Part shown: piece after piece, positions 18,080-42,193 of the stretch
How the letters are laid out: each line of letters starts with the position of its first letter
Position numbering within the stretch: position 1 is the first letter of the stretch
Origin: Nanobdellota archaeon
Lineage (GTDB): Archaea; Nanobdellota; Nanobdellia; Pacearchaeales; GW2011-AR1
Assembly: GCA_030698805.1 (NCBI GenBank)
Contig: JAUYMA010000003.1
Coordinates: forward strand, 12,167-76,166
Direction of reading: 5' to 3'
DNA length: 64,000 nt
Position numbers and translations under genes: made by a program
The notes under the pieces: model-generated
The model's input: the letters and a program-made list of their open reading frames with translations, nothing else
The model's database searches: none
What the model was told of the DNA's origin: nothing

Positions 18080-18097
18080 AGAAAGTATGTATAAAAT

Positions 18098-22468: not shown

Positions 22469-22469
22469 G

Positions 22470-22895
22470 ATGAGAACATTAGAACAAACCCCTGAAAATC
22501 AGAAGTCTGGAGATCAGAAAGAATCGGGATTATCATCTATGGATGTAATGCCAATTATAGTTACTGCCAGACCTAGCTTGTCTGAAGCAGAGAATGCATT
22601 AATGAGAAGACTTCCTGCTTCCTATACGGAAAGAACTGTAAGAGATGTCTTAAGTTATATCATGGGATCTGCTGTAGCTGATACAGAAGCTTCAACAATG
22701 AAGAGTTTAAGAAACGAACTTGGAGCGGCTGGTAGCTATATCCTTGTTAATGGGAAAGAAGCAAAGCTGACTGACAGAGTAGAAGGATATCTTGTTGATA
22801 GAACTGAAACTGTCGAAGGCAGACCAATAAAATATCGACAGCTTGAGATAGAAATTTCTGCGGTTCAACAGGGAGGTTATCAGAGAAGATTCTAG
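22470..22895 (+). CDS. ubiquitin-like (beta-grasp, ThiS/MoaD/SAMP-like) protein precursor with GG plus 5-aa tail
   Basis: 141 aa starting 1 nt after the AAA stop. The N-terminal roughly 40 aa are polar and disordered-looking. The C-terminal part reads ...SYILVNGKEAKLTDRVEGYL...QLEIEISAVQQGG-YQRRF. The diglycine is at codons 135-136 (22872-22877). Confidence 0.6.
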   Translation: MRTLEQTPENQKSGDQKESGLSSMDVMPIIVTARPSLSEAENALMRRLPASYTERTVRDVLSYIMGSAVADTEASTMKSLRNELGAAGSYILVNGKEAKLTDRVEGYLVDRTETVEGRPIKYRQLEIEISAVQQGGYQRRF

Positions 22896-22922
22896 GAAAG
22901 AATTCTTCAGTGATGCAAGAAA

Positions 22923-23900
22923 ATGAAAAATTTAAATTTACTTTTAATTGGAGAAGAACCTTCAGAGAGGCCAATAGTAGAAAAAGGCCTTGGCCTCGAT
23001 GAAGTGCATATCTCTAGCTATGCACATGATAAAGCATTCAAATATGCTGAATTAATAATACAAAGAAAGGGAAGAAGTCTTGAAGTTGGAGGCTTTTTAA
23101 CCACGCCTAAAGAAGCAAGAGACCGAGTTGCCAGAGATGCATTTCTTGCCCGAGATCAAGAAGTTACTTCTGTTTCTTATATATTGAGTCCTCAAGATGT
23201 TAAAAAAGCTAAACAAGAGCTTGACAAAATGGGACAGAGAATTGTGGGGTGGTGGCATAGTCACGGACGTATGAGAACTTTCCACTCTGATATTGATGAT
23301 AAAAATCAGATGGTCTTGCTTAATCAAATAGCGCCTTCTAATTATTCTGTAATAAGACAAGAAGAAACAAGAGGTTTACAAAGCAGGTTAGAAGGGAACT
23401 CTCTTATTTTCTGGGATCCTGCTAATCCAAGAAAAGTATACTCTCTAGATATCAAGAATGATAATCCTGAGCTTATAGCTAAGCGATTACGCATAACTAA
23501 AGAGGAGCAGATTGGATTCGCTTATAGCTTTGTTGTTAATCATCATAGATGGTTAAATTTTAGAGTACCTTATTGTGAAATAGCCACTAGGGAAGTGTGT
23601 TCTGGATGCTTAAATGATAATGCTAAAAGTAAGACAACTGGATACAAAATATTTGATGAAGGAGATTTTGAAATTGATGAAGAACAACTTATCGTAGAAA
23701 TAGATGAACGAGTACATTTAGCTGGGACAAGGAGGAAGTATTTCTTGCCTGAAGATTTTGAAAGGGAAAGGGCTGCAGGCACGCTGACGAAACCTGAATT
23801 TGCCTTAGGCACCTCTCCAATTTACCCTGCTCATGCAAGCAATCTTGATTTGACTCAGTCTCCACCTATAAATTATGCTAAGAGGTATTGGAAAAAATGA
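22923..23900 (+). CDS. JAMM/MPN+ metalloprotease (JAB domain)
   Basis: Complete JAMM signature: E in LEVGGFL, then H-x-H-x7-S-x2-D in WWHSHGRMRTFHSDID (23256-23297). The C-terminal extension has a Cys cluster, CEIATREVCSGC. Confidence 0.85.
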   Translation: MKNLNLLLIGEEPSERPIVEKGLGLDEVHISSYAHDKAFKYAELIIQRKGRSLEVGGFLTTPKEARDRVARDAFLARDQEVTSVSYILSPQDVKKAKQELDKMGQRIVGWWHSHGRMRTFHSDIDDKNQMVLLNQIAPSNYSVIRQEETRGLQSRLEGNSLIFWDPANPRKVYSLDIKNDNPELIAKRLRITKEEQIGFAYSFVVNHHRWLNFRVPYCEIATREVCSGCLNDNAKSKTTGYKIFDEGDFEIDEEQLIVEIDERVHLAGTRRKYFLPEDFERERAAGTLTKPEFALGTSPIYPAHASNLDLTQSPPINYAKRYWKK

Positions 23901-25306
23901 TAGAAAAAAATATTAGATATGATCGACAAGAAAGAATCCAAAATTGGGACCAAAGTAAATTAACCAAAGCGAGAGCAATACTTATTGGCGGAGCACAATT
24001 AACTCATTTTACTGCGGCATCGCTAGCGGCTCTTGGAATAGGAAATATAGAAGTGTATATTCCTCAAGGAGAAAAAACACAGGGATTCCTGACACCTTTA
24101 GGGGGAGAACCTAGAGATCTTGAAAGCAAATTAAGGCAAATGAATCCCTCCTCCTCTATAAAAGTAGGAACATTTGATACAGAGCTTAACTTGACTCAGA
24201 ACCGCCCAGATATATTGCTTGATCTTACTAACTCGCCAGAGATGAAAGATAAATCAATTGGAATTTCTTCTTTGTATGGTATTCCAATAATCTCTGCTTC
24301 GAATGGTAAAACTGGAGGAGCATTCTACTTAGGGACACTGGGAGAGATACCTGCTAGTGCACGACTAGAAGATTATGCAGGTTCTACCCAAGGGGGATTT
24401 TCAAGTGAGATTATGGCTGGAATGATAACTGAAGAAGTAAGAAAAAGTTTAATGCCTTTAAGAGAAGGAGAAAAACCAGTTAAAAGCTTGGCATATCAGG
24501 GCACTGCTGAAAGAAGATTTGCTAGAGAAGGAGATTTTGAAGCAGACCCTTATGAAAACATTTCAGAAAAAAGAATATTAATCGTTGGTGCAGGAGCATT
24601 AGGCAACTTTACAGCACTGGGGGCTGCTCTTGAAGGAATAGGAAATATAGATATATTAGACTTTGATGAGGTTGAGGCCCACAACCTTAATAGACAAATA
24701 CTATTTTACGATGCAGTTGGAAGAAAGAAAGCAGAGGCTTTGGCCGCAAAGGTAAGAGAAATTAATCCTCATGCAGAGGTAAGAAGTCTTGTAGGAAAGC
24801 TTGATGAGAATACTATTTATTTTGAGAAAAATAGACCTGACGTGATATTAGATTGTGTGGATAATTTTGCGACAAGAGCCCTAATTAATTACTTTGCCGT
24901 GAGATATGGCATACCTCTCGTTTCAGGAGGCACAAATTCTCAATCTGGACAAGTTGTAGTATACGAACCTGGAATGAGTTCGTGCCTTCAATGTAAATTA
25001 GATGTGGAGAAAACTCTTGCCCTCTCATTACAAGGAAGCAAATGTACAAACTCTCCTGATCCTAGCGTAATTATGACAAACGAAATCGTTGGGGGTATGA
25101 TGATTGGAGAGACACTCAAAGTCATGGACAAAGGATATGGCACGCCTGTCTCCAAGATTCTTAAATATGATTCGAATGTCCCTATCCGGGGCGGATTAAT
25201 TGGAGCAGGAGACCCCTGCGATTGTACGCGCGGAGATATGAAGAAGTGGTTGACAGGAGTCAAAGAGAGACTTGAAGATATTTCGGAGGCATCTCATGGC
25301 GTTTAG
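23897..25306 (+). CDS. E1-like activating enzyme with two fused ThiF/MoeB-type domains
   Basis: First half has RYDRQ plus a degenerate nucleotide loop (ILIGGAQLT). Second half is a canonical adenylation domain: ILIVGAGALGN, DFDEVEAHNLNRQILF and DCVDNFATR, with paired Cys motifs CLQC and CDC. ATG 23897 forms an ATGA overlap with the JAB stop; the track start at 23888 is TTG. Confidence 0.85.
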   Translation: MIEKNIRYDRQERIQNWDQSKLTKARAILIGGAQLTHFTAASLAALGIGNIEVYIPQGEKTQGFLTPLGGEPRDLESKLRQMNPSSSIKVGTFDTELNLTQNRPDILLDLTNSPEMKDKSIGISSLYGIPIISASNGKTGGAFYLGTLGEIPASARLEDYAGSTQGGFSSEIMAGMITEEVRKSLMPLREGEKPVKSLAYQGTAERRFAREGDFEADPYENISEKRILIVGAGALGNFTALGAALEGIGNIDILDFDEVEAHNLNRQILFYDAVGRKKAEALAAKVREINPHAEVRSLVGKLDENTIYFEKNRPDVILDCVDNFATRALINYFAVRYGIPLVSGGTNSQSGQVVVYEPGMSSCLQCKLDVEKTLALSLQGSKCTNSPDPSVIMTNEIVGGMMIGETLKVMDKGYGTPVSKILKYDSNVPIRGGLIGAGDPCDCTRGDMKKWLTGVKERLEDISEASHGV

Positions 25307-29420: not shown

Positions 29421-30467
29421 ATGGACTTATATCAATTAATTACTCAGGCAGTTGGAGGATTCTCGGTTGGTTTAGGGGCCTCTTTGAATTACAAAAGATA
29501 TAATGAAGCAGTGAATAGCATGGAATATGCAAAATTAATTGATGAATCTAGATTGGGAAAAGAATTAGAAAGCAAGGGTTTGACTGAGGAAAAATTAAAA
29601 AATTGGCATGAAGCAAATCGCAGACTTAATATCTTATCTCCTTATCTTTATGGCTTTGGATTTTCAGTAGCCACTAGCATAGCCTCGTTTGCCCAATGGA
29701 ATTTTGGTGAAAATGTTTTGATTTCAGTACCATCTGCTTACCTCGGCTTTGCTGCTGGAGTCTTGACTCATAGAATTAAAAATATGAAATTTAGGGAGGA
29801 GATGCAAATAGCCCAAGAGATGAAGAGAAATCCAGATTCTATTGAAGCTCTTCTTACTGAAAATGAAAGATCAACTATCAGGACTTCCTTGGAACAAATT
29901 GAGCAAGGAATGTTTGAAGGAAGCTTTAACCCTCTTACTTCAAAGCCGCTTTTCCTAATCTACTCTACTGTAATCGAGAGAAATAAAGTTTACACGCCTT
30001 TAGTTACCCAATGGAGCTTAAAGGAAATTGAAAAAGCAATATCTTCCGGCAAATTACAAAAAGATCTTAAAGATTTCTATGAAACTCCTCTTCCCATTGG
30101 GGGGAGCATTGCTACTGCCTCCCTTAACTCTCTTGTAATAGAAAGGCCGACTCGTGTCTTTGTAAGGGAAGGGGATAAGTTTTATTCTCTAGATGTTTCC
30201 TGGAAGAATATTCGAATTATAGAACAAGATGAGACTAAAGAAGTAAGCATATGTGGCACTGCTCCGGATCTAAGAAAGATCCAAGAAGAATCTTGGAATC
30301 CTGATTACAAAACCCTGGCGCATATTGTTGAAGAGCATGGCAAAGATGCAAATAGAGTTATAATGCTCGCTCCTGAGAATACTTCTCTGGGACTTCAGGG
30401 AGCGATATTAACACAAAATTATGTGGAAGAACTAGTAAGAAGACTGAAGAATGAGAAAAAGAACTAA
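29421..30467 (+). CDS. membrane protein with C-terminal soluble domain, last gene of the Ubl operon
   Basis: ATG 29421 is 1 nt after the P4 stop, with AAGGAGG upstream. Hydrophobic segments are LITQAVGGFSVGLGASL, YLYGFGFSVATSIASFAQW and LISVPSAYLGFAAGVLT, followed by about 220 soluble residues. No family recognised. Confidence 0.5.
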   Translation: MDLYQLITQAVGGFSVGLGASLNYKRYNEAVNSMEYAKLIDESRLGKELESKGLTEEKLKNWHEANRRLNILSPYLYGFGFSVATSIASFAQWNFGENVLISVPSAYLGFAAGVLTHRIKNMKFREEMQIAQEMKRNPDSIEALLTENERSTIRTSLEQIEQGMFEGSFNPLTSKPLFLIYSTVIERNKVYTPLVTQWSLKEIEKAISSGKLQKDLKDFYETPLPIGGSIATASLNSLVIERPTRVFVREGDKFYSLDVSWKNIRIIEQDETKEVSICGTAPDLRKIQEESWNPDYKTLAHIVEEHGKDANRVIMLAPENTSLGLQGAILTQNYVEELVRRLKNEKKN

Positions 30468-31174
30468 TTATTCTTAGGGCCTAGCAAAACAAAAATATAA
30501 TCTCCATAAGTACCTTCTTCGCTATGCTCGGGCCAGGTTTTTGTAATTCCATGATGATCAAAGTGTCTTTTTACTTTAGGCAAGCGTTTTCCCAGAGAAG
30601 TCTTAAATTCATCCTTAAGAACATCATTAGCAATAATGTCTGTGCATGCTTCTATTACCTCATCTGGAGCGCCGTTTCTTATTGTGGCTGCTAAGTATTC
30701 ATATCCTAATTTGGCAGCACCCAGTTTTCTTTCAAGCTCATTAGAATAATCGTCAATATAACAATCAGAAAGAATAGCGGTTCCGGAAGGATTTAACCAG
30801 GAAGCCATGTTATGGATTAATTCTCCTTGTCTTTCATAAGGAAGATGATGTAAAGCTCCTGTACATGTTATAACATCAAATTTTCTTTGTGGTTTCCAAG
30901 TTAGAACATCTCCAACTTCAAAATGGGCTTGAGGATATTTTTTCATCCCGTGCTCGACATAACTTTGTTCAATATCCACACCATGCAAAGATAAGTCTGG
31001 TCTTTGCTGTAATAATTGGCCTTGCAAGTATCCTGGGCCGCACATTAAATCAAGAACCTTCGCACTTTTCTGGGCTACTGCACAAAGTATTTGAACAACT
31101 GTCTTGATTGATTCTCTATAAGGCCAATAAACTAATTCTTGTTCGTATGTTTCTGGAGGAGGTAAAGGTTTCAT
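30464..31174 (-). CDS. class I SAM-dependent methyltransferase (left arm, M2)
   Basis: Motif I VLDLMCGPGYL, then HGVDIE and FDVITCTGALHHLP. Confidence 0.7.
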   Translation of the reverse strand: MKPLPPPETYEQELVYWPYRESIKTVVQILCAVAQKSAKVLDLMCGPGYLQGQLLQQRPDLSLHGVDIEQSYVEHGMKKYPQAHFEVGDVLTWKPQRKFDVITCTGALHHLPYERQGELIHNMASWLNPSGTAILSDCYIDDYSNELERKLGAAKLGYEYLAATIRNGAPDEVIEACTDIIANDVLKDEFKTSLGKRLPKVKRHFDHHGITKTWPEHSEEGTYGDYIFVLLGPKNN

Positions 31175-31175
31175 T

Positions 31176-31904
31176 TTATTTTTTATAAGCTATAACCAGT
31201 GCATCTCTTTCGATGCGCTTGACAATTCTAGGCTTGGAAAATCCTGCATCTCTCAAATCTTGCAGAGCTTCGTTTTCTCTCATGACAAAGGGTTCCTGAT
31301 GATCTTGGACTTCATGCTCAATGATTGCTTCGGCCAATCCTGCAGGCCATTTATTTTTCTGACTTATTGATCTATATCTGTCAACTGCAACTTGCAATGA
31401 ACGTCTCTCTTTTCTTGGATCATCTGATACGAATTTGTCCATGCATAAATAAAGTGCCCCAGGAAACATGGCTTCATATCCTGTCTTTAGAATCTTCCTG
31501 CGCTCTTCTCTTGGAAAATTATGCAAAGCCCAGGCTGAAGCGAGCACATCCATTTGTCCAGCACATAGTTCTAGACAGTCCAGGACTTTAGTTCTTATAG
31601 GAAATAAACGGCCTTGAGAAATATAAGATTTAAAATTAGTAGCTAACTCCTCTTGCATTCTGTCGCTAGGATCTATGGCTATCACTTTGGATCTCTGCTC
31701 GTATTCTAAGATATACTTTGTGGCCTCTCCTCTACCGCTTCCTATTTCAACAACGTTTATTGCCTTACCCTTATGTTTTCTGAAGTGAGTAGCAATTGTC
31801 TTGCCCAATCTTCTATGCATCTCTCCACTATGCGGCCAAGCCTGAAGAAGAGTATCGTAATTATCTACTAAAATTCCCGAATATCGTGGTTCTCGAGTTG
31901 CCAT
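31176..31904 (-). CDS. class I SAM-dependent methyltransferase (left arm, M1)
   Basis: Motif I VVEIGSGRGEAT, then VIAIDPS and DVLASAWALHNF. Confidence 0.7.
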   Translation of the reverse strand: MATREPRYSGILVDNYDTLLQAWPHSGEMHRRLGKTIATHFRKHKGKAINVVEIGSGRGEATKYILEYEQRSKVIAIDPSDRMQEELATNFKSYISQGRLFPIRTKVLDCLELCAGQMDVLASAWALHNFPREERRKILKTGYEAMFPGALYLCMDKFVSDDPRKERRSLQVAVDRYRSISQKNKWPAGLAEAIIEHEVQDHQEPFVMRENEALQDLRDAGFSKPRIVKRIERDALVIAYKK

Positions 31905-31906
31905 AT

Positions 31907-32689
31907 TTACCAGCTCTTTCTAAGAGAAAGATCAAAGGTGGCAGCATGATCTTTGAAAACTCCATGCATATCATCAATTGCTTTTTGGGCTCTGACTCCT
32001 GCATTTAATGAATATCCCCTTCCTAGATCTGCCCCCACATTTAGTCCAATAGCGGCAACTGAAAATCCAGAATCAGGTACGAAGTATCTATTATTGTAGG
32101 AGAGTCTGCTTTCCACTCCAAGAGTTAATCTATCTGTTAATGGAAAATTCTTGCTTAGCTTTAATTGGAATAATTGACCTTCGTGGCTTATTTCTCCATA
32201 AGACTGAACAGCTGTAAAAGTGACATCTACTGGCAACTTCTTTGTTTGCACACTTACTCCCAGAGTATATGCATCTTCCAATTCAGTATTTGGAAATGTG
32301 AACCAGTAAAATTCAGGCCTTATCCTGAAGTTCTCTGTTTCAAGATTGAGAGTTAGAGAGTTGTCTAATTCGTTCAATCCATTCTTCATATCATAATTAC
32401 CCCAGAGATTGTAAGATAGTTTTCCTATATTAAATCCCATATCACTTTGAATGACTGGTCCTTCTGATAAGGTAAAACCATATGTTCCCATATATCTTGA
32501 ATGCCAACTTGTGCCTACAGAGAAATTGCTAGGTTTTAGAGAGAAGGTTTCTTTTTCTACTGACACATCTGCAGCTCCTGCTGAAGGACTTTCTCCATCA
32601 TCTGCCTTTGTGCTTACTGTAGTAGTTGCAAGAATACCTGCAAGTCCTAACGATGCTATCTTTCCTATTGTTCTTGTTGTGTTTTTCAT
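31907..32689 (-). CDS. secreted beta-rich protein, outer-membrane beta-barrel-like (left arm)
   Basis: Start trimmed to ATG 32689 (MKNTTRTIGKIASLGLAGILATTTVSTKADD is a signal peptide). Amphipathic alternating beta-strand patterns throughout. The C-terminus ...ATFDLSLRKSW ends in an aromatic residue. Confidence 0.5.
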   Translation of the reverse strand: MKNTTRTIGKIASLGLAGILATTTVSTKADDGESPSAGAADVSVEKETFSLKPSNFSVGTSWHSRYMGTYGFTLSEGPVIQSDMGFNIGKLSYNLWGNYDMKNGLNELDNSLTLNLETENFRIRPEFYWFTFPNTELEDAYTLGVSVQTKKLPVDVTFTAVQSYGEISHEGQLFQLKLSKNFPLTDRLTLGVESRLSYNNRYFVPDSGFSVAAIGLNVGADLGRGYSLNAGVRAQKAIDDMHGVFKDHAATFDLSLRKSW

Positions 32690-32760
32690 TTCGTGTTTTC
32701 CTTTTGTAACCACTTTATGATTACAATAATATAATGAAAAATTAGCTATTAATATTTTAT

Positions 32761-32777
32761 TGATATTATTAATATTA
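32761..32777. promoter_or_regulatory. operator-like TGATAT-N5-ATATTA upstream of AbrB-PhoU copy 2
   Basis: TGATATTATTAATATTA, followed by GTAAGATTTAAAAT (a TATA region resembling the 41-nt element), about 43 nt upstream of ATG 32819. Confidence 0.4.
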
Positions 32778-32818
32778 ATAATAGTAAGATTTAAAATGGG
32801 GGGAAACTTAGAAAAGAG

Positions 32819-33730
32819 ATGCAAAGAAAGCTTATTGGCCAGGGTTTAGGAGGAATTACTGTTCACTTACCTAAAAGATGGATCGATGCTCATCACTTGA
32901 AGAAAGGAAATGAGATAGACATAGAAGATTCTGAAGGAAAATTGATAATATCCCCTAAAAAGATAAATAAAGATAAAAAAGAAACTTCTATCAGGCTCTC
33001 AGGATTAGAAGAATCTCTTATTAGAACACTTATTGCAAATACTTACAGGTTAGGATACGACTCTATCAAGGTAGATTTTGAAAATGAAAAACAATTTCAA
33101 ATATTAAATGAGATAATTCAAAAAAGATTAATTGGTTTTGAGATAATCAAAAAAGATTCCGGAAGCTGCATTGTAGAAAATGTGACTGAACCCGAAGAAG
33201 ATCAGTTTGGTAATATTATGCAGAAGCTCTTTCTTAATATAGATACATTGCTGGAAAATATTAATCAACTATGCTCCTCGGATAAAGCTCAGATTAGCGA
33301 GAGTATTGATGAACTAGATGATAGGATACTGAAATATGACAATTTCTGCAGGAGGATATTATTAAGAAGGAGATTTGATGAAAAATCTGCTTTGCATTTA
33401 GCTTTCTTGACTATGATTATACATGGAGAAAGAGAATTATATTATCTTTCTAAGTCTATTGGCAAAGGTATGAAGTGCTCTTCAGAAACTCTTAAGATTA
33501 TAGGTGGTATTGCTCAAATTAACAAACTTATTCAAGAAGCCTATAATAAGAAAAAATTTGATAATCTAGCAGATATTAATGCTATTGGAAGGAGAATTAT
33601 CTATAAAGAAGGCTATAAATTAATGGAAAATAAAAAAGGAAAGGAGCTTATTGTGATACATCATCTCTTAGCATGCACCAGGGATTTTTACCAAGCAGTC
33701 AGCCCATTGAGCGGATTATTGTTCACGTGA
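32819..33730 (+). CDS. AbrB/SpoVT-domain plus PhoU-like regulator (module copy 2)
   Basis: MQRKLIGQGLGGITVHLPKRWIDAHHLKKGNEIDI N-terminus and a helical body with YDNFCRRILLR. The 3' end overlaps the kinase 3' end by 15 nt. Confidence 0.75.
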   Translation: MQRKLIGQGLGGITVHLPKRWIDAHHLKKGNEIDIEDSEGKLIISPKKINKDKKETSIRLSGLEESLIRTLIANTYRLGYDSIKVDFENEKQFQILNEIIQKRLIGFEIIKKDSGSCIVENVTEPEEDQFGNIMQKLFLNIDTLLENINQLCSSDKAQISESIDELDDRILKYDNFCRRILLRRRFDEKSALHLAFLTMIIHGERELYYLSKSIGKGMKCSSETLKIIGGIAQINKLIQEAYNKKKFDNLADINAIGRRIIYKEGYKLMENKKGKELIVIHHLLACTRDFYQAVSPLSGLLFT

Positions 33731-35887
33731 CCTATATTCTATGACCTTCTCTGCGAAATCCTGAGAAGGCACTGAAATATTCCAATCAAGCAGTTTATAT
33801 CCATTATTGTTTGTTCCGTGATATATTGGATAGGCGGTAGAGAAGTTAGTCTCCCCCGTCTTATTGTTTATCAAGTCGATAAGCAGAGTATATTCTCCAT
33901 GGGGTGTTTCATTGCCTGGAAGGGGAATGTAATGAATATACTTATTAGTTTCAGAGAATCCTAATTCAGGTATTGAATAAGTTGCAGATAAATCTCCTTT
34001 TTCATTTAAATGATATGTTCTTTCTTCTTCGAAAATTCCATTAGTATGAATATATGTACTTACCCCAACATCATTGTCCCCATATGAAAACCTAAGCCCT
34101 GTGATTCGTGCATGTCTGTTAGGTATATCTCCTACTACTATGGGAATTCTTTGTTGCGCTAAGATATTGTTTGTATTGCAATTTATTATAAATTCTCCCT
34201 CATCTTTAGGGTTTGCAGCTCTTGGTGGGAGAGAATCGACAAGGAGAGTATAATTTCCAGAAGGGAAATTAGTGGGGATTTTTATTGTGGTTGAAGAAGG
34301 ATACCCTGATCCAAAAGGCAAGTTTTTAGGAGGAACTAACTTAGGATCTCTAGAAGATGTATTGAATATCTCTGGAGAGATATTGGTATTGCCTTCTACT
34401 GCAACTTCGATAGGATAAATTAAATAAGGAACCCTAAATTGTTTTGATTGAAGAGGTTTCTGAATAATATTTGCGAATACTCTCACCTCATCTCCTTGTT
34501 GTAGATGCAATATTGATGTTTTTTCTGGATATCTTTGACCTGGAGCAACTGCCCAAGTACTCAATTCATAAAGAGCTGAGGGCTGGAGATTATTATTACC
34601 GTCCCAATCCGAATTAATCTCAATTGTTCTTTCTTTATCGTTCAATTGCTTTTCTGCATCTTTAAGTTTGGCATTATCTAAATGAGCATAGTAGCCAAGC
34701 GCAGAGATTGCTAAAGCACTTGCGGCTGCTGCAACAGTATTTCTTGGGGAAGAAGGTTTTTCCCAAAATGATGGACTAGAGGCTTCCTCAAATTTTTCTA
34801 GAAGTTTACCTAAATTATTTATGCGACTCGAACCTAAAGTCAATCCATGATAAAGGAGGTCTCTAAATTTTCTTGCATTTTTTGGTAGCTTACTCAATGC
34901 CTTATTTAGTTGTGATTCATATTGATTGACATCGAGGTGCTCTGGACTATAAGGGTCAACTATGAGGAAATCTTTTCCTAAAAGCATCATACCAAACATT
35001 TTCGTTAGAGAGTAAACTTCAGAAGCCTCATCATAATGTGAGGGCTTACCTGTTCTTGAACTCATTAGTCTAGGATCGCAAGTGGTTCTTCCTGGGCAGG
35101 AATGAGTATAGCTATCCACTACTTCTCCGTCGACTCCTGCTGCAGAAGTATCAGTTATCACTATCTCTCCTAATCTGTCTTCCAAAGAAACTAAAACATT
35201 AGAAGGTTTTAAGTCTCTGTGAAGATGGCCTGTCTTCTGCCTGAATCTCTGAGCCGAACTAAACATTTGCTCTGCAAATGAAGAAGCAATTGGCAAAGGA
35301 ACCTTCTCCTTTTGGTCTAATATGTCTTGAAGAGAAACTGATGGAATAAAAGTTTCAGCATAAGCATAGCTTCCTGCATATCCGACATCGGATAGTTCCT
35401 TGCAGGCTATCGGGGCTGAAAATCCTGGCATTCGCTGAAGATTTAGCGCCATATTTGCTTCTCTCCTAGCATTATAGCCCTTCCTAAAATGTTTAAGCAT
35501 AGCTGGAGAAGGATTATTCAGCATAATCTCTCCCTCGGGTTTATCCATCTTAACTGCAAGGCGAAGATTATTGCCTGAACCATCAAATACCGATTCTGCT
35601 ACAAATACTGTTTTAATGTTCCCCTCCGCACAATAGGCCCAATTAGTGTAATCTGGGAATTTTTTCTTTAGAGCATCTACCTTTGTCTTTAATTCTAAGG
35701 AAAGATCATTATAAGGAGTAATTCTAGGCCCTTGTATTTCTTGGAGAAATTCCTTGAGAGTCATGGTCCTTTGAGGCTTCTCAAATAAAGATTTTATGCC
35801 TCTCCATACATACCCAATATAATCTGGTCCTGGAAATTGACTTTGGCCCTTTCTTACCTTAACAAGTGCTACCTCTAATTCAGGCAT
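33716..35887 (-). CDS. membrane-spanning Hanks-type Ser/Thr protein kinase (module copy 2)
   Basis: LAVKM, HLHRDLKPSNVLV and ITDTSAAG. One TM (VAAAASALAISALGYYAHL) and a roughly 330-aa C-terminal ectodomain homologous to that of copy 3. Start set at ATG 35887 (8-nt overlap ATGCCTGA); the track start is 35911. Confidence 0.8.
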   Translation of the reverse strand: MPELEVALVKVRKGQSQFPGPDYIGYVWRGIKSLFEKPQRTMTLKEFLQEIQGPRITPYNDLSLELKTKVDALKKKFPDYTNWAYCAEGNIKTVFVAESVFDGSGNNLRLAVKMDKPEGEIMLNNPSPAMLKHFRKGYNARREANMALNLQRMPGFSAPIACKELSDVGYAGSYAYAETFIPSVSLQDILDQKEKVPLPIASSFAEQMFSSAQRFRQKTGHLHRDLKPSNVLVSLEDRLGEIVITDTSAAGVDGEVVDSYTHSCPGRTTCDPRLMSSRTGKPSHYDEASEVYSLTKMFGMMLLGKDFLIVDPYSPEHLDVNQYESQLNKALSKLPKNARKFRDLLYHGLTLGSSRINNLGKLLEKFEEASSPSFWEKPSSPRNTVAAAASALAISALGYYAHLDNAKLKDAEKQLNDKERTIEINSDWDGNNNLQPSALYELSTWAVAPGQRYPEKTSILHLQQGDEVRVFANIIQKPLQSKQFRVPYLIYPIEVAVEGNTNISPEIFNTSSRDPKLVPPKNLPFGSGYPSSTTIKIPTNFPSGNYTLLVDSLPPRAANPKDEGEFIINCNTNNILAQQRIPIVVGDIPNRHARITGLRFSYGDNDVGVSTYIHTNGIFEEERTYHLNEKGDLSATYSIPELGFSETNKYIHYIPLPGNETPHGEYTLLIDLINNKTGETNFSTAYPIYHGTNNNGYKLLDWNISVPSQDFAEKVIEYRSREQ

Positions 35888-36047
35888 TTTCTTTCTCCTC
35901 CAGATTTTCATGAATGAGATCTATCTTCAATTGAGTAAGCATGCCTGGCTTAATTATTCCTTCAAGATCTTTTGGAATTACAATTACTGATTGCCTGCCG
36001 TGTTTTGCAATTCTTTTAGTTATAATAATTGATTTTGGGCCTTTCAT
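35880..36047 (-). CDS. small AbrB/SpoVT/MazE-like protein (module copy 2)
   Basis: Hand-translated 55-aa ORF absent from the track (MKGPKSIIITKRIAKHGRQSVIVIPKDLEGIIKPGMLTQLKIDLIHENLEEKENA). Confidence 0.6.
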   Translation of the reverse strand: MKGPKSIIITKRIAKHGRQSVIVIPKDLEGIIKPGMLTQLKIDLIHENLEEKENA

Positions 36048-36049
36048 TT

Positions 36050-36068
36050 GATACATCAGAGATGTATC
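36050..36068. promoter_or_regulatory. perfect palindrome gATACATc-aga-gATGTATc (ATACAT-N5-ATGTAT), left operator
   Basis: 8-bp arms with a 3-nt spacer, 3 nt upstream of the minus-strand small-ORF ATG (36047). Confidence 0.55.
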
Positions 36069-36082
36069 AGGTATATTTAAAT

Positions 36083-36123
36083 GTAACTATAAAGTAATAA
36101 CAAATCGTAAGATTTATATATGC
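36083..36123 (+). promoter_or_regulatory. conserved 41-nt promoter element (copy B) with TATA box
   Basis: gtaactataaagtaataacaaatcgtaagatttatatatgc, matching 18039-18079 at 38 of 41 positions. TTTATATAT is at 36113-36121. Confidence 0.6.
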
Positions 36124-36125
36124 CT

Positions 36126-36144
36126 TATACATACTTTATGTATA
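36126..36144. promoter_or_regulatory. perfect palindrome tATACATa-ctt-tATGTATa (ATACAT-N5-ATGTAT), right operator
   Basis: 8-bp arms with a 3-nt spacer, between the TATA box and ATG 36154. Confidence 0.55.
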
Positions 36145-36153
36145 ATTAGAACT

Positions 36154-36312
36154 ATGGAAAGCAAAAAATTCGTTATAACGAAAAAAGTCGCCAAGCATGG
36201 AAGCCAGGCCATCATAGTTATCCCTAGAATTCTTGAATCTGAGCTTAAACCTGGCACTATTGCTCAAGTGACTATTGAAATTATAGAAAGCCAAGGAGGA
36301 CAAAATGAGTGA
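36154..36312 (+). CDS. small AbrB/SpoVT/MazE-like protein (module copy 3)
   Basis: Hand-translated 52-aa ORF absent from the track (MESKKFVITKKVAKHGSQAIIVIPRILESELKPGTIAQVTIEIIESQGGQNE). Confidence 0.6.
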   Translation: MESKKFVITKKVAKHGSQAIIVIPRILESELKPGTIAQVTIEIIESQGGQNE

Positions 36313-38434
36313 GACTGGGGTTTCTACAAGAGAGGAAATAATAAAAATAGCCAGAGGCGTTTTGCCCCGAGGTAAATATCATGATTTGAAGTCTTTTGAC
36401 GAAGAAGAAGGCGCCCAACGAATTTGTTTGACTGCAAATAGAGGTATACCTCCTCATACTCAAGAGGTTTTTATTAAAATTGATAAGGAGCCTGTCGGAG
36501 AAGCAGCCTCTAGATTAAAAGAAGGGGGATATACCACACATCAAGAAGTAAAAACTCTTCTAGAAATTCCAGTGGATGAGGCTATTCATAATCATTTGAG
36601 CCCGGTAGTAGATTTCTATATGAGTGCATCTACTGGCTCTACAATATCTGTAGAACCCAGATTTAAAGGTGCCAAGTCTTTGAAGAGAAGGGTGGCAGAG
36701 CAAGGCCCGTTAGACACTAAAGAATTTGAAGATTTTATGCGCCAATATGTTCAGGCCAATGTATATTTAATTAAAAATAGAAGAATGGTGCATCGAGACC
36801 AGCACCCTAAGAATATTTTGATAGGGCCTTCTATAAATGGAAAGGGATTGGAAGCAAGACTTACTGATATGACTACTGCGACAACTTTGGATTCTATTGA
36901 CCAAAGCAGTTCTACAACTTGGGGGGCCAGATCGATAAGGCACTTTGCATATGGCAATTCTTCATTTGAGAAGAGAATCGGAGCAGAACAAGCTGAGATA
37001 TATTCTATTGGTATGAATGCTATCTTCTCTTTGACCGGCATGTTCCCGGTTTATTATGATAATCTTAATGGAACTGGGATTAGCGCATTTACTGGTGAAA
37101 ATCTTCTAAATAAAGATGGAACAGTCAACATAGAGAAACATAATGAGGCTATAGAACAAGCCCTCTCTAAATTCCCGAAGAAAGCTAGAAAGCACACTGG
37201 ATGGATAAAGAAATGTGTAAATGGAGATGTGGATAAGCAGTACAGGTCTATTGATAGTCTTGTTAGAGATTTTGAAAGAACAGTTACCCCTACCCTAATT
37301 GATAGAATGAGAAGTATTCCTAAGAAAGTTAAAGCAGGATTAGCTGCAGGTCTTGCCGCTTTGACAATAGGGGGCGGTGCGCTTACCTATGAGATTATTG
37401 AAAAAAATAAGGAACATTCTGTCCAACTTGCAGAAGCAAGTAGATACAAAATTACTGCAGAATGGAATGGACTTAACCCTCAGATAAGAAATAATTTATT
37501 TGAAATGAAGGCAAGCTTATACGGCAAAGATTATAGTAAGGGATATCCTAGAAATAAATTCTTAAGAGTTGAAAGAGGACAAGAGCTTAGCGGACATATA
37601 GAATGCAAAGAATATCCTCGTCAGCAAAATTCTAGATTAGGAGATTTCTATTCCTATTCGGGCCAGGCTTATATAGAGGGTTATCCCCTTGAAGAAGGAA
37701 TCTCTGATACTTTTGGAGTGACCCCCATACCTTCAAATGAAGCTGGCGCTTACGCAGAAGGGGCTTACTTTGGAGGAGACTTTAGGATAAAGATACCTAA
37801 AGATCTAAGAGATGGTGTATATAGCTTGGCTATTGCCACTTATGCTCCCACTGAAGAAGTAATAGCTAAAAAAGAATCTGAAAATAGAAGGACTGCAACT
37901 TCTGTTAATATAAAATTTACCGCCCCTGGAAAGGCCTTAACATTAAAAACTATTCCACTCATAGTTGGAGATCCTAAACCTGCTTTAGCACAGCACGAAT
38001 TTAATATTAACAGCTTTGATGATAATATCTCCCTTGATGAAGTACAAGGAAGAGATGAATTCGGAGGAGGGCTCTCACCTCGAAGCAGTTATTTCGCTTC
38101 CACCTCTTTAGTTAATGATGAAAAGATTTCCATTTTAGGGAGAGGGATAAATAGAAGTACCTTAGGGATAAAATTACCTGAAGGAACAAATTATTTGGAG
38201 GGAGTTGCTGAAGTGGGAGTTTATTCCCTAGAGTCTAAGCAAATAATTTTCTACACCGCATTTCCAATTAGGAGAACTGAATATCCCTCACAATTGCAAT
38301 CCCCTCTTTATTTCTGGGGATTAGGCCTGCCTGGGAAAGATTTTCCTGAAAAGTTGATAGAACATAGACAGAATTTAGAGATAAAAGCTGCAGAAGCCTT
38401 TGCTAGAACTAATTATTCATTACCTAAAGAATAA
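36305..38434 (+). CDS. membrane-spanning kinase-like protein with divergent catalytic motifs (module copy 3)
   Basis: VFIKI, MVHRDQHPKNILI (HRD-x4-N kept, Lys replaced by His) and RLTDMTTA; no clear Gly-rich loop. One TM (AGLAAGLAALTIGGGALTY) and an ectodomain homologous to copy 2. 8-nt overlap ATGAGTGA with the small ORF. Confidence 0.75.
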   Translation: MSETGVSTREEIIKIARGVLPRGKYHDLKSFDEEEGAQRICLTANRGIPPHTQEVFIKIDKEPVGEAASRLKEGGYTTHQEVKTLLEIPVDEAIHNHLSPVVDFYMSASTGSTISVEPRFKGAKSLKRRVAEQGPLDTKEFEDFMRQYVQANVYLIKNRRMVHRDQHPKNILIGPSINGKGLEARLTDMTTATTLDSIDQSSSTTWGARSIRHFAYGNSSFEKRIGAEQAEIYSIGMNAIFSLTGMFPVYYDNLNGTGISAFTGENLLNKDGTVNIEKHNEAIEQALSKFPKKARKHTGWIKKCVNGDVDKQYRSIDSLVRDFERTVTPTLIDRMRSIPKKVKAGLAAGLAALTIGGGALTYEIIEKNKEHSVQLAEASRYKITAEWNGLNPQIRNNLFEMKASLYGKDYSKGYPRNKFLRVERGQELSGHIECKEYPRQQNSRLGDFYSYSGQAYIEGYPLEEGISDTFGVTPIPSNEAGAYAEGAYFGGDFRIKIPKDLRDGVYSLAIATYAPTEEVIAKKESENRRTATSVNIKFTAPGKALTLKTIPLIVGDPKPALAQHEFNINSFDDNISLDEVQGRDEFGGGLSPRSSYFASTSLVNDEKISILGRGINRSTLGIKLPEGTNYLEGVAEVGVYSLESKQIIFYTAFPIRRTEYPSQLQSPLYFWGLGLPGKDFPEKLIEHRQNLEIKAAEAFARTNYSLPKE

Positions 38435-39297
38435 ACTAGCAAATAATTATTGAGTATTATTATTTTGTTTAACAATTGCATTAAAAGAGCATCTGAAACG
38501 CTTTTTCCTTTTATTTCTTTCTTGAGTGTTTCATAAAGTCTTGCATTTTTTACTAATTTCTCCTTATCAAAAGAAAAAATAATCTCTCGGAAATTTGCCA
38601 GAAGCTCTCTACTTCCTCTTATTGTTTCTATTTGAGACTTTGAAGACTTTTCTTTTTCTGCTTCTCCTGCAATTGCCTTGTATGTGTCCCCTATCTGTTC
38701 AAGAGAATTAATAATTGCATATATCTGATTTGTTCTCGAGTAGATAGGATAACCTTTTTTATTTAGAACTCTTAGGCAGAAATGACTTAATCTATTTACA
38801 CTGGTATCTGCCTCTATTACCTGATCCATTTTTTGTTTTTTTTCACAGGCTTGCACAAGTTCCTCTGCAATGGAATCTAGAATAAGAAAGATTCTCTTGA
38901 TGAGCTCATCAATCTCTTGTTTTTCACATCCCGTGACATCTTTTAAGATAAAGCTTGAACTTGTTTGTTTTACAATCTCAAAGCCAAGAAGCTCTGGCAG
39001 AACGCGCTTATGGAAATCCTTAACTTCACTGTAATCTTTAAACTTTACCTCTATTTCGTCCAATCCTTTTTCATATAATGCCAATAATGATCTGTTAATT
39101 AATGGAGAAAGGTCAATTACATCTATAGAGGTCCTGCTTGCTTTTTCTTTGACAGATAATGGAGAAATTTTCAGCAAATCTTCCTCCTCGATCATATTTA
39201 CTTCGTCTCCTTTATCGAGCTTATATTTTTGCACCCATTTTGCAGGCAGACTTATCATTAAAGTTGCTGCGCCTTGCTTTACTAACTTCCTCTGCAT
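38413..39297 (-). CDS. AbrB/SpoVT-domain plus PhoU-like regulator (module copy 3)
   Basis: MQRKLVKQGAATLMISLPAKWVQKYKLDKGDEVNM N-terminus and a helical body with LSHFCLRVLNK. The 3' end overlaps the kinase 3' end by 22 nt. Confidence 0.75.
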   Translation of the reverse strand: MQRKLVKQGAATLMISLPAKWVQKYKLDKGDEVNMIEEEDLLKISPLSVKEKASRTSIDVIDLSPLINRSLLALYEKGLDEIEVKFKDYSEVKDFHKRVLPELLGFEIVKQTSSSFILKDVTGCEKQEIDELIKRIFLILDSIAEELVQACEKKQKMDQVIEADTSVNRLSHFCLRVLNKKGYPIYSRTNQIYAIINSLEQIGDTYKAIAGEAEKEKSSKSQIETIRGSRELLANFREIIFSFDKEKLVKNARLYETLKKEIKGKSVSDALLMQLLNKIIILNNYLLVYSLGNE

Positions 39298-39430
39298 CTC
39301 TTTTTCAGCCTTTCATAATATATAAGCTTTTTCTTTTTTATATATACTTTATACTAATATATATAGTTTAATAACAAGGTTTAAACCTATCTTTTCTTCA
39401 TATTATTAACTAAATAGTAGTTACAATAAA

Positions 39431-40693
39431 ATGAAAGAAAAAATAATAAAGGGTCTGACAGGATTGATCGCAGCTGCAGCTCTTACAAATAGTGTTGAAG
39501 CTCAGAATGGTTCAGTATGGAATAATATTCAAGAAGCGGGCCTGGATGGAAGAGCAAAAGTTGAATATAATGGTAATTTTGATACTTCTCACACTTTGAG
39601 AGAAACTATTGCTTTTGGAAGAGAAGGAGTTTACGATGGCAGAACCTCAGTAAAGGGGCAGTTTTTTGATATTGGACGTTTGACACTTGCCCAATATCCG
39701 GATCAGGCCAGATCTCAGGAAATGTTTGGCCTCAGACTAGAACCTCAGAAGACTTTTGGACTGACTAATAATTTAATTCCTGCAAGCACGATTGTGTTTG
39801 GAAGCGTTACTCATAATGAAAATGATAGTGTAGAGGCCATAGCTTCTGAAGCTAAATGGTCATTAGACAAAAAGACTTTTTATTTAAGGGGAGAATTGCA
39901 GAATGGAAATCAATCTCTTTCCCACTTAGGGGGAACTTTTAGATACGATGCTGGGAACTGGGCTTTCCAGTTAGGAGAAGAGTATGTTTCTCAAAATTCT
40001 GGAGATTTCAATCAGATATTAGTAAATGCCTCCATAATGCCGACTCAAAATGACTTTTATGCGCTGACCTTTGCACATCAGAATTTACCAGATAATACTG
40101 ATAACAACAGAGTGAGATTCACAACTGCCCATTTCGGGAAAGATGCTTCCTGGGGACATAGAAGTTTTTTTGAATATTCATTTAATCCAGAGAAAGATCA
40201 AGAAATTATTTCTGGTCAGCTTGCCATAGTTCCTTTTGGACCCTCAACTTATGGAAAAATAGCTGCAAGACTTTTTACTGAAGATGTTTGGGAAAATGAT
40301 AGCATATTCAAGGTTATGAGAACTCCTTTCGGACTTTTTACTGAAGGAGTACCTCACTTTGATAGAATTGTTGGCGGGCAAGGCATAGAAGGATTAGGTT
40401 TTGTTGTAAATGCCTCTTCTGCAAGAACGGGGGATCAAAATTCTAAGAATATCTCCGGGCAGGTTCACTATATTGGGCGACTGCCTGGAAGCCTTTTGGG
40501 TCAGAATGAATATGGAGTTTACGCCGGTTCCAGCTACATAGATAATAATGGAAACTCTGCAACTTACCTCGATACTGGAACTACTTTGAGATTCGGAAAA
40601 CATTTCTCATTAAGGGCCGGATTTGGCATACCTATTCAGACTGAAACTAAACAGAATCTTCAGGGAGTTTTAGAAGCTGAATTTAAATTTTAA
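39431..40693 (+). CDS. secreted beta-rich protein, outer-membrane beta-barrel-like (right arm)
   Basis: Signal peptide MKEKIIKGLTGLIAAAALTNSVEAQ. Long run of alternating-polarity strands rich in G, Y, F, N and T. C-terminus ...LQGVLEAEFKF, with terminal Phe and alternating hydrophobics. Confidence 0.5.
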   Translation: MKEKIIKGLTGLIAAAALTNSVEAQNGSVWNNIQEAGLDGRAKVEYNGNFDTSHTLRETIAFGREGVYDGRTSVKGQFFDIGRLTLAQYPDQARSQEMFGLRLEPQKTFGLTNNLIPASTIVFGSVTHNENDSVEAIASEAKWSLDKKTFYLRGELQNGNQSLSHLGGTFRYDAGNWAFQLGEEYVSQNSGDFNQILVNASIMPTQNDFYALTFAHQNLPDNTDNNRVRFTTAHFGKDASWGHRSFFEYSFNPEKDQEIISGQLAIVPFGPSTYGKIAARLFTEDVWENDSIFKVMRTPFGLFTEGVPHFDRIVGGQGIEGLGFVVNASSARTGDQNSKNISGQVHYIGRLPGSLLGQNEYGVYAGSSYIDNNGNSATYLDTGTTLRFGKHFSLRAGFGIPIQTETKQNLQGVLEAEFKF

Positions 40694-40694
40694 C

Positions 40695-41435
40695 ATGGAA
40701 GGATACGAGACACAAGCCGGATTCTGGGATAAAACTGCACCAAGGGTAATGGGGGATTTAATCGGAAGGCCAAGTGCTGTTGAGTTAATGGGGAAAGGAA
40801 GGGTTAGGAGAGAAAAAATACTTGAAGCTGGATGCGGTACTGGATATACTGCTAGAATGCTTGTAGGAGAAGAGGCGATAGTTAGTGGATGTGATTCCTC
40901 TCGTGAAATGCTTGAGAAAGCAATTAAAGAAGAAAAAGATGCTCCTGGAATAGAATACAAGCTTGCAAATATAATAAGCACTGGATATGAAGGCGATAGA
41001 TTTTATGGAGTAATGTCTATAGGCGTTTTGATACATAATAATCCAAGTTTTGTCAATTTAGCATATCGTGAAGCATTCAGAGTATTAAAGCCTCAAGGAA
41101 CAATGGTTGTTTCAGTTACACACCCTTACTTATTCACTTCAGGAAGTCCTTCTATGAAGAAAGGAAAGAATTGGGTTAAGCATAGATTCCTTGGTAAAGA
41201 GAATGCAGGAAGTCGCGTGTTTGAAGAAGAATACTATGATTTAAATGGAAATAAATTTGTTTCTGAAGTGTGGGATCATTCAATTGGATTTTATTTAAAC
41301 GGGGCTGTTCAAGCAGGATTTAAACTTGAGGAAATTAGAGAACCTAAAGTAGAAGAAAAACATCTACTTCATCCTTCTTGGGGAAAAGAATACGGGTATC
41401 CTGCTTTCTTACAATTTAGGATGGTGAAAAAATGA
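40695..41435 (+). CDS. class I SAM-dependent methyltransferase (right arm, M3)
   Basis: Motif I ILEAGCGTGYTA, then VSGCDSS and FYGVMSIGVLIH. Starts 1 nt after the beta-rich gene. Confidence 0.7.
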   Translation: MEGYETQAGFWDKTAPRVMGDLIGRPSAVELMGKGRVRREKILEAGCGTGYTARMLVGEEAIVSGCDSSREMLEKAIKEEKDAPGIEYKLANIISTGYEGDRFYGVMSIGVLIHNNPSFVNLAYREAFRVLKPQGTMVVSVTHPYLFTSGSPSMKKGKNWVKHRFLGKENAGSRVFEEEYYDLNGNKFVSEVWDHSIGFYLNGAVQAGFKLEEIREPKVEEKHLLHPSWGKEYGYPAFLQFRMVKK

Positions 41436-42193
41436 ACTCTCGTGAAGGACTAAACCTTGCAGTGAGAATACTCGAAGATGAAGAAATAATAACAGGCGAC
41501 GAAGCAAACAAATATGCGGACAGACGAGATAATAGGGCATTGACTACTCGCTTAGTTGCCTTAGACATTTTAGAAAAGATTCCTATTAAAAAAGTTACTG
41601 GCAGAGTTTTGGAGGTTTGCTGTGGAGCAGGAGATTTAGCGAATAAATTATACCGTTTAACTGATAACCCAAATATTCGTGCTACTGATGGGAGTCCTGG
41701 TCTTATTGAAACTGCAAAAGTAAAATATCCTCATATTAATTTCTCAGTTGCGAATGTGCACAACCATCTCGGAAGAGGAAAGAATGATCTTGTTATCTGC
41801 AAAGATGCTTTTCACCATTTTAGTGATCCTCAAAAGAGTCTTGGAGAATTGCTAGATTTAGTTTCTCCCGGCGGATATTTGTATATCTTTGACCTTAATA
41901 GAGACTGTTCTCCAAATCATTTCCAAAGAAGAGAACAAGTCATTGTAGATCCTAATGAGAAAAGAAGATTTATACGATCTTTAAACGCCTCTTTGACTGC
42001 TGTAGAGTTCGCTGAACTTCTAAGGAAGCCTGAGATTTATGAAATAATTTCTTCAGCATTTATACATTACCCTTTTAGTTTCTCTGATGAAGCTCTGGCA
42101 AAGAGTCAAGATTTAATTGCAAAAGATGAAACTAGTGAATACAAATTGAATACCCTATCTGCAGTTTATGTCTTGCAAAGGAGGAAAAGATGA
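41432..42193 (+). CDS. class I SAM-dependent methyltransferase (right arm, M4)
   Basis: Motif I VLEVCCGAGDLA, then IRATDGS and DLVICKDAFHHFS (compare GALHHLP in M2). ATGA overlap with M3. Confidence 0.7.
   Translation: MNSREGLNLAVRILEDEEIITGDEANKYADRRDNRALTTRLVALDILEKIPIKKVTGRVLEVCCGAGDLANKLYRLTDNPNIRATDGSPGLIETAKVKYPHINFSVANVHNHLGRGKNDLVICKDAFHHFSDPQKSLGELLDLVSPGGYLYIFDLNRDCSPNHFQRREQVIVDPNEKRRFIRSLNASLTAVEFAELLRKPEIYEIISSAFIHYPFSFSDEALAKSQDLIAKDETSEYKLNTLSAVYVLQRRKR

Follow-up and report, generated by a model that had tools for sequence, protein, structure and literature searches.

What do the two palindromes in the intergenic region at positions 36048 to 36153 do, and which protein reads them? 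The region lies within the 64,000-nucleotide stretch of contig JAUYMA010000003.1 from a Nanobdellota archaeon that we analyzed at its full length (the window), which is archaeal in its gene content, encoding aEF-1alpha with an eEF1A C-domain as well as aEF-2 (GC content, ~37%). It separates two divergent copies of a module that is found three times in the window in paralogous form, each module comprising a gene for a protein of 52 to 58 amino acids (the small protein), an overlapping gene for a Hanks-type kinase, and a convergent gene for an AbrB-PhoU regulator. The first-pass annotation had described twin ATACAT-N5-ATGTAT palindromes on either side of a conserved 41-nucleotide (nt) element and had suggested that an AbrB-type repressor could block initiation at them. 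Our comparison of related loci traces the palindromes to a repeated 8-bp box that accompanies the small-protein gene, and we argue that these boxes probably form an operator through which the small protein controls its own operon.

The region itself is best explained as a bidirectional promoter of compact archaeal design, the genome being a DPANN one of the Woesearchaeota type. On the minus strand, the promoter of module 2 carries the TATA box TTTAAATA (36074-36081), matching the clade consensus TTTAWAWA; on the plus strand, the promoter of module 3 carries the TATA box TTTATATA (36113-36120), directly preceded by the sequence CGTAAGA (36106-36112), which resembles a transcription factor B recognition element (BRE), the clade consensus for the two together being aGAAAGn-TTTAWAWA. 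The two divergent BRE/TATA cores are 31 bp apart, and their distances to the respective ATG codons, 26 nt for module 2 and 33 nt for module 3, are as expected of such core promoters. Both TATA boxes and both palindromes are arranged in mirror symmetry about position 36097, and the intergenic region as a whole is an imperfect mirror repeat of 40 nt with 75% complementarity. From the usual archaeal distance between TATA box and start, transcription is predicted to begin near 36051 for module 2 and near 36143 for module 3, the former transcript therefore being leaderless or nearly so. The TATA boxes and start codons are rule-based assignments, and an in-frame ATG at 36056-36054, inside palindrome 1, offers an alternative start for the small gene of module 2. 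With the minus-strand gene starting at 36047, the distances of 3 and 9 nt between the palindromes and the start codons given in the first-pass annotation are correct, and both palindromes do lie between a TATA box and a start codon, a position at which protein binding would prevent initiation.

The palindromes proved longer than first described. ATACAT-N5-ATGTAT is found at 36051-36067 and 36127-36143, the only two sites in the 64-kb window, against 0.01 expected from shuffles. Each site extends to a perfect 9-N3-9 palindrome, TGATACATC-AGA-GATGTATCA at 36049-36069 (operator 1, module 2 promoter) and TTATACATA-CTT-TATGTATAA at 36125-36145 (operator 2, module 3 promoter). Operator 1 begins 4 nt past the minus-strand TATA box, its other end being 1 nt from the ATG at 36047; operator 2 begins 4 nt past the plus-strand TATA box and ends 8 nt ahead of the ATG at 36154. 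Read as boxes, operator 1 consists of GATACATC and GATGTATC and operator 2 of the two consensus boxes TATACATA and TATGTATA, in both cases with an 11-bp spacing. While the module 2 and module 3 promoters are only ~62 to 75% alike and their spacers differ, all 12 hexamer positions are identical, and operator 2 is kept in the close relative L201 (GTACAT-ACTTT-ATGTAT).

The operator of module 1 is likewise larger than first described. This copy had been thought to retain only a right half-site; instead, it carries three boxes with an 11-bp period on the plus strand (18075-18104), namely, TATGCAGA at 18075-18082, TATGTATA at 18086-18093, and TATGCAGA at 18097-18104. The ATGTAT within the central box thus lies at 18087-18092, one base to the right of its earlier placement. 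The first box overlaps the TATA box and the last one overlaps the ATG at 18098, and the same spacing recurs in L208, a relative of module 1, with the boxes TATAGAG, TATGTATA, and TATAGAG. The 8-mer box occurs four times in the window, three of these copies being at module promoters. The remaining, lone TATGTATA (58302-58309) is situated ~35 nt upstream of an M16 peptidase gene on the minus strand (start at 58267) and was judged an isolated box, probably a variant of a TATA box.

We compared more than 150 related loci from metagenome-assembled genomes (MAGs) of Woesearchaeota, Pacearchaeota, and Nanoarchaeia, the lineages to which all 187 genomic relatives of the small protein belong. A box pair was defined as two ATGTAT/ATACAT hexamers at a distance of exactly 11 bp, with no more than one mismatch. 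Such pairs are present upstream of the small gene in 40 of 72 loci (27 of them exact), compared with 0.48 in shuffles, and 11 bp (40 promoters) and 22 bp (12 promoters) are the sole peaks of the spacing profile. The pairs lie downstream of BRE/TATA elements of the consensus given above, with gaps between TATA box and pair clustering at 6, 17, and 26 to 29 nt; the gap is 6 in both window promoters. Flanking positions that played no part in the selection of boxes are conserved as well (T at -1 in 79 of 95 and A at +6 in 71 of 95), widening the hexamer to TATGTATA(A). With the boxes in forward (F) or reverse (R) orientation, the pair arrangements FF, RF, and RR were each found 14 times and FR 8 times. 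The conserved unit is accordingly the box TATGTATA or its complement TATACATA, in two and sometimes three copies 11 bp apart and in any orientation; the position and box sequence of the twin palindromes are conserved across the clade, their inverted pairing being incidental. In the rest of the 390 kb of related loci, 31 further pairs were found, about half of which are upstream of a small gene, consistent with the promoter of an operon.

The same association emerged beyond these loci. A scan of 185,579 genomes for the exact TATACATA-N3-TATGTATA returned at least 120 stretches; among the 120 matches listed, 11 are from DPANN archaea, and in 10 of these 11 a gene for the small protein lies no farther than 1.3 kb from the pair, as tblastn confirmed for 8 of them, whereas no small-protein gene is nearby in any of the 109 bacterial or other stretches listed. 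The element had been attributed to kinase modules, but it follows the small-protein gene: the box pair is present whether the downstream gene encodes a kinase, an AlaE-like protein, or a protein without assignment, and by its distribution in sequence the element belongs to the small gene and not to the kinase. A search of genomes for related loci based on the kinase found no relatives; the search based on the small protein succeeded.

The operator moreover changes with the small protein. In the subfamily with the motif HG-x-Q-[AS]-IIVIP, the box pair is present in 31 of 36 TATA-bearing promoters, compared with 0 of 10 in the QSVILIP subfamily, 0 of 4 in the QNVIVIP subfamily, and 0 of 2 among the D-T variants. 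Subfamilies that lack the pair carry elements of their own at the same place. In L190 (1195-1225; the orthologue of module 2) and L207, whose proteins have the HG-[KR]-D-T motif, CTGTAGC-N3-GCTACAG replaces the TATGTATA pair, lying 8 nt after the TATA box with spacers that differ between the two. In the subfamily "KSYTITKRIAKHGKQSVILIPKYLQ" (L224, L226, L231, L238, L240, L243, L246, L247, L250, and L252), a different conserved element, which includes ATAACAGAAAACACATAAA, is found downstream of the TATA box.

Within the window, the small proteins are encoded at 36154-36312 on the plus strand (module 3; 52 amino acids, a member of what we call the AKHG-Q-IVIP family), at 35880-36047 on the minus strand (module 2; 55 amino acids from the ATG at 36047 or 58 from that at 36056), and at 18098-18259 on the plus strand (module 1; 53 amino acids). 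They share 44 to 54% identity with one another, and the genes of modules 3 and 1 overlap the following kinase gene, in module 3 by 8 nt (36305-36312). The open reading frames (ORFs) noted at first are real genes: the small protein has 389 homologues, nearly all annotated as hypothetical and none with a Pfam domain, which form a compact family of 155 clusters at 50% identity in 1.84 billion proteins. Their description as AbrB-like holds only at the level of the fold group. The small proteins had no match in Pfam or NCBIfam, and none of 55 family members matched PF04014, even at E values up to 10; two distant members reached this model at E values of 0.05 to 0.09, below threshold, and alignment of the family with the AbrB domains of the window by hhalign was not significant (E = 0.036 over 12 columns). 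A single-domain profile searched against the PDB placed 2glw first among the relevant chains (E = 0.62), and the model of the monomer was uninformative, with MazE (1mvf) appearing at E = 3.5.

More information came from P0121, a metagenomic protein of 101 amino acids in which two small-protein domains are naturally fused in tandem, an arrangement that agrees with dimer formation by the single-domain proteins. Its structural model (pLDDT, 88.6; pTM, 0.78) had as best Foldseek match the RIFT barrel PhS018 (2glw; E = 3.4e-4; TM, 0.67/0.73). This predicted structure supports placing the small protein in the fold group of cradle-loop barrels, which are built from two beta-alpha-beta halves and include RIFT and PhS018-like barrels as well as AbrB and MazE; the match speaks for the fold group and not for the swapped-hairpin topology itself. 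The N-terminal half of the small protein is basic, with K10, K14, H15, and R25 invariant or nearly so; T9, S17, and T35 are conserved as well.

The 41-nt element between the palindromes (36083-36123) turned out to be composite. It matches 18039-18079 upstream of module 1 at 38 of 41 positions (93% identity, 3 mismatches), as first reported. It recurs nowhere else in the window. Since the DNA of modules 1 and 3 is only ~62 to 67% identical in the small ORF and the kinase genes cannot be aligned, this identity represents real overconservation; taken together with the 12 of 12 identical hexamer positions, it points to constraint against a low background. It is not a single element, however, but is made up of an upstream element (UE), a 4-nt linker, the generic BRE and TATA box, and 3 more nt, and the substitutions relative to module 1 and to L201 are confined to the UE spacer, the linker, and the flanks. 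The UE, GTAACTATAAAGTAATAAC (36083-36101), has a palindromic core ACT-N4-AGT (36086-36095; in module 1, 18042-18051, with the TATA box at 18069-18076). A palindrome of the form GTAAY-N9-RTTAC had been considered for the 41-mer and was dropped in favor of this core after comparison with the relatives.

In both module 3 and module 1, the UE core starts 27 nt ahead of the TATA box, which is the canonical distance: with relatives aligned on the TATA box, the core starts at -26 to -28 in 21 of 84 promoters, and ACT-N4-AGT is enriched 12-fold upstream of small genes, controls being near 1. Relative to module 2, the core starts just 14 nt from the TATA box and overlaps the BRE, and the same asymmetric sharing is seen in L190. 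The UE, in contrast to the operators, is unchanged in all subfamilies, including "KSYTITKRIAKHGKQSVILIPKYLQ". Across the window, TTACT-N4-AGTAA with two mismatches is barely above chance (73 versus 51 expected). UE-like sites lie directly ahead of the neighboring X-methyltransferase operons: TTAACTAAATAGTAGTTAC at 39406-39424, which covers the predicted transcription start of gene X3 and lies 6 nt ahead of its ATG (39431), and GTAATCATAAAGTGGTTAC on the minus strand at 32706-32724, 17 nt ahead of the ATG of gene X2 (32689). The earlier suggestion that the 41-mer might be a transcribed leader can be set aside because it lies upstream of both TATA boxes; moreover, folding gave no RNA structure (z = -0.15), and Rfam yielded no match at E values up to 1. 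The other suggestion, binding of a shared activator, is plausible for the UE part only.

As separate observations, the right half of the UE, ATAAAGTA (36089-36096), is exactly complementary to the center of palindrome 2, TACTTTAT (36132-36139), and the heptamer ACTTTAT, mildly enriched in the window (29 versus 16 expected), is present also in the AbrB-PhoU intergenic regions (20861, 32712, and 39346).

Considering these data, we propose that the boxes are the operator for negative autoregulation by the small protein encoded downstream, which on being bound would block RNA polymerase, a reading of the sequence that we hold to be probable. Because the boxes are repeated between the TATA box and the start codon of the small gene across DPANN archaea, a shutoff site of its own operon is their most likely function, and linkage, covariation, and fold together make the small protein the candidate binder. 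In this model, each quasi-symmetric 8-bp box would be bound by one dimer of the ~50-amino-acid half-barrel protein. The 11-bp start-to-start spacing would place both boxes on one face of the helix, at about -20 to -2 from the predicted transcription start, and two or three dimers side by side would stop the recruitment of RNA polymerase or the opening of the promoter. The small protein would in this way repress its own operon, including the cotranslated receptor-type Ser/Thr kinase. The UE would be a second site, for a different factor that is invariant between small-protein subfamilies; in modules 3 and 1, it sits where archaeal activators would act, and since it overlaps the BRE of module 2, a single occupant could favor one of the divergent operons over the other. 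Of the initial idea of an AbrB-type repressor, then, the blocking position, its clade-wide conservation, and the covariation of operator and small protein are upheld, with a candidate partner that would belong to the fold group at large.

Several points weigh against this model. The boxes resemble TATA boxes, so that a role in the core promoter is conceivable, and those of operator 1 are flanked by G and C where the consensus has T and A. Of the 72 promoters, 32 are without a pair, many among those checked belonging to small genes that are internal to operons. The covariation comes from few clades and hence represents few independent events, the D-T variant being a single lineage with two members, and the comparison sequences are MAGs. 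Furthermore, we know of no demonstration of DNA binding by RIFT barrels of the PhS018 type.

If the small protein were not the binder, the boxes could be operators of another regulator, either the convergent AbrB-PhoU protein or an unlinked factor, and the small protein could be, for example, a partner or substrate of the kinase. A bona fide DNA-binding domain, PF04014, is part of the AbrB-PhoU proteins, which are present at about half of the loci, while the small protein matches no recognized DNA-binding model. We nevertheless judge this alternative to be rather unlikely: the AbrB-PhoU promoters have motifs of their own (GATATCA repeats or AAACTATATATATTAGTATAAA) and no box pair, ~40% of the pair-bearing loci have no AbrB-PhoU gene within 3 kb, and the type of operator shifts with the small-protein subfamily, which argues against AbrB-PhoU as the binder. 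We consider it improbable that the boxes are instead core-promoter features of highly expressed genes, that is, weak extra TATA boxes or initiator-region elements read by the TATA-binding protein (TBP) and transcription factor B (TFB) or by the polymerase. It is true that one or two changes separate TATGTATA and TATACATA from TATATATA, that quasi-symmetric TATA boxes function in both orientations, and that the TATA box of module 3 overlaps with a third, in-phase TATATATG. Yet pairs are confined to the small-gene family, with three of the four 8-mers of the window at module promoters, and other promoters of the same loci have the same BRE/TATA elements and no boxes; neither the strict 11-bp period nor the subfamily-specific replacements would be expected of general promoter elements.

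Two further explanations concern the palindromes as such, and we regard both as very improbable. They might be RNA hairpins in 5' leaders, acting on stability or translation, since RNA transcribed from them would have folding energies of -9.8 and -5.7 kcal/mol (z-scores, -6.0 and -2.9). However, the predicted transcription starts are inside or after the palindromes, homologues carry direct repeats (FF and RR), which are unable to pair, as commonly as inverted ones, and there is no Rfam match; all four orientations occur, which favors a symmetric protein reading the DNA over an RNA hairpin. Equally improbable is that the promoter segment between the twin repeats (36070-36124) can invert, or that the repeats are left over by chance from the 11.7-kb mirror duplication in which they lie. 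While promoter-flanking inverted repeats are a hallmark of invertons and the region is within a large inverted duplication, the repeats are just 9 bp long, no recombinase domain is seen in the module genes, and a single promoter with one pair is the rule in the relatives. Against relics speaks the survival of 12 of 12 hexamer positions over a background identity of ~62%, and conservation throughout the clade rules out chance. A type II toxin-antitoxin module of the MazEF kind was also considered, with which the gene overlap would fit, and was rejected as the downstream genes encode Hanks kinases of 530 to 730 amino acids that contain a hydrophobic segment and a large C-terminal part, AlaE-like proteins, or products without assignment and no known toxin. 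None of the rival explanations accounts for small-gene specificity, freedom of orientation, and covariation together.

The modules that carry these promoters are themselves part of a larger symmetric arrangement. Modules 2 and 3, with a secreted protein X and two methyltransferases on each side, make up an 11.7-kb mirror duplication (30464-42193) centered on 36097, in which each arm has the order methyltransferase, methyltransferase, X, AbrB-PhoU, kinase, small gene, reversed in the other arm. Paralogues across this mirror are ~40 to 55% identical in amino acids, and likeness at the DNA level among modules is limited to the promoter and the small ORF (~62 to 67%), with none in the kinase genes. 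The Hanks-type Ser/Thr kinase of module 3 (36305-38434, plus strand; 709 amino acids) contains a large C-terminal domain and, in its center, a hydrophobic segment rich in Ala and Gly, and its L201 orthologue is annotated with PF00069; the kinase of module 2 (33716-35911, minus strand) has 731 amino acids. The AbrB-PhoU gene of module 3 (38413-39297, minus strand) is convergent with the kinase gene, and its product, like those of module 2 (32819-33730, plus strand) and module 1 (19843-20772, minus strand), matches PF04014 above the gathering score. The AbrB-PhoU genes have conserved promoter motifs of their own, of two types that recur across many MAGs: type A, TAATATTTAACTGATATTATTGATATCAcTGATATCA, in modules 1 and 2 (20807-20846 and 32748-32783), and type B, TTATTAAACTATATATATTAGTATAAAt, in module 3 (39338-39375).

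In the nearest relative, L201-L203 (~1170-2800; small protein 88% identical), a gene for a DDE transposase (PF01609) replaces the module 2 side, and similarity to the window stops between the minus-strand TATA box and palindrome 1. A protein of 227 amino acids (17342-18025, plus strand), for which Pfam and NCBIfam gave no match, ends 13 nt ahead of the module 1 41-mer, and in several relatives the small gene is separated from the box-pair promoter by a gene of similar size (220 to 280 amino acids). Elsewhere in the window, a Csm6-type HEPN protein with the CRISPR ancillary nuclease domains PF09670 and PF22205 is encoded at 3445-4821 on the minus strand, and consecutive genes at 20987-25306 for an AAA ATPase, a Prok-JAB protein, and a ThiF-family E1-like protein suggest a ubiquitin-like modifier system.

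DPANN archaea are uncultivated organisms with tiny genomes, and to our knowledge, almost nothing is known of their gene regulation. The present analysis defines a cis-regulatory code, made up of a box, the spacing between its copies, and the phase they keep with the TATA box, together with a second, upstream element at a fixed position, and it provides a candidate regulator family of several hundred unannotated proteins with one testable operator per subfamily. We found no description of this operator/small-protein system in the literature. The pairing of operator and small regulator is real, conserved, and previously undescribed, while its mechanism is of an ordinary kind, the principle being that of an autoregulated repressor between TATA box and start site. 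Since the operator is short and the protein has only 50 amino acids, testing in vitro is possible without cultivation, and the pair could become the first characterized transcription factor/operator system of the lineage and open a way to learn what the linked receptor kinases sense.

A bolder hypothesis, which we offer tentatively and think doubtful as a whole, is that the AKHG-Q-IVIP proteins are a new, DPANN-restricted family of ~50-amino-acid transcription factors with subfamily-specific, TATA-phased operators and that the cotranslated kinase phosphorylates the factor and so releases repression; control of the repressor by the kinase is a conjecture by analogy. Were it true, the module would be a minimal, eukaryote-like signaling unit of kinase plus repressor, linked via the shared UE to the AbrB-PhoU and methyltransferase operons, and it would mean dedicated and multiplied signal transduction in organisms thought to regulate very little.

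How does this system compare with those already described? The operators of the AbrB-type proteins MazE and VapB2 contain several neighboring ATATAT sites, to which dimers of these same proteins bind (PMC4333400). The present modules resemble those of Escherichia coli MazE and Rickettsia VapB2 (PMC4333400) in having a small first gene that overlaps the next and encodes an obligate cradle-loop-barrel dimer, which here is predicted, and in having a short AT-rich quasi-palindrome (ATATAT there and ATGTAT/ATACAT here) at adjacent sites of their own promoter, with negative autoregulation that in our case is the proposed function. They differ in that the promoter is an archaeal BRE/TATA promoter instead of a sigma-70 promoter, that the small protein has no PF04014 match and the RIFT barrel PhS018 as its closest fold, that the downstream gene encodes a large receptor-type kinase or another nontoxin, and that the boxes follow a strict 11-bp period in phase with the TATA box. 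PhS018 of Pyrococcus horikoshii (2GLW), our best structural match, is a single-chain, two-repeat protein of unknown function that has been grouped with AbrB and MazE as a cradle-loop barrel and is predicted to bind DNA like MazE (PMC4333400; PMC11258233). Sso7c4 of Sulfolobus is a 7-kDa homodimeric DNA binder of the SpoVT-AbrB type that has been described as a chromatin protein (PMC3159460). Unlike both, the small-protein family is isolated in sequence and tied to a specific operator.

The position of the boxes has its parallels among archaeal regulators, and so does that of the UE. Archaeal repressors such as MDR1, LrpA, Phr, and those of the TrmB type bind between the TATA box and the start, excluding RNA polymerase, and several of them autoregulate. 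The operators proposed here likewise lie directly downstream of the TATA box, over the predicted region of promoter opening, but those repressors are winged helix-turn-helix, Lrp, and TrmB proteins of 15 to 40 kDa, whereas the candidate here is a 6-kDa half-barrel with an orientation-free array of 8-mers. The sites of archaeal activators such as Ptr2 and TFB-RF1 are found just upstream of the BRE, from where TBP or TFB is recruited; the UE resembles them in its fixed distance just upstream of the BRE and differs from them in that it also covers the BRE of module 2 as well as predicted starts of neighboring operons (39406-39424), places at which binding would result in repression. Finally, AbrB of Bacillus subtilis is phosphorylated by Hanks kinases, which modulates its DNA binding, according to the account of Kobir et al. 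(2014) given in PMC6333020. That circuit and the modules of the window have in common a small barrel-type regulator, here a candidate, together with Hanks-type Ser/Thr kinases, the difference being that here the genes for regulator and kinase overlap and are cotranscribed.

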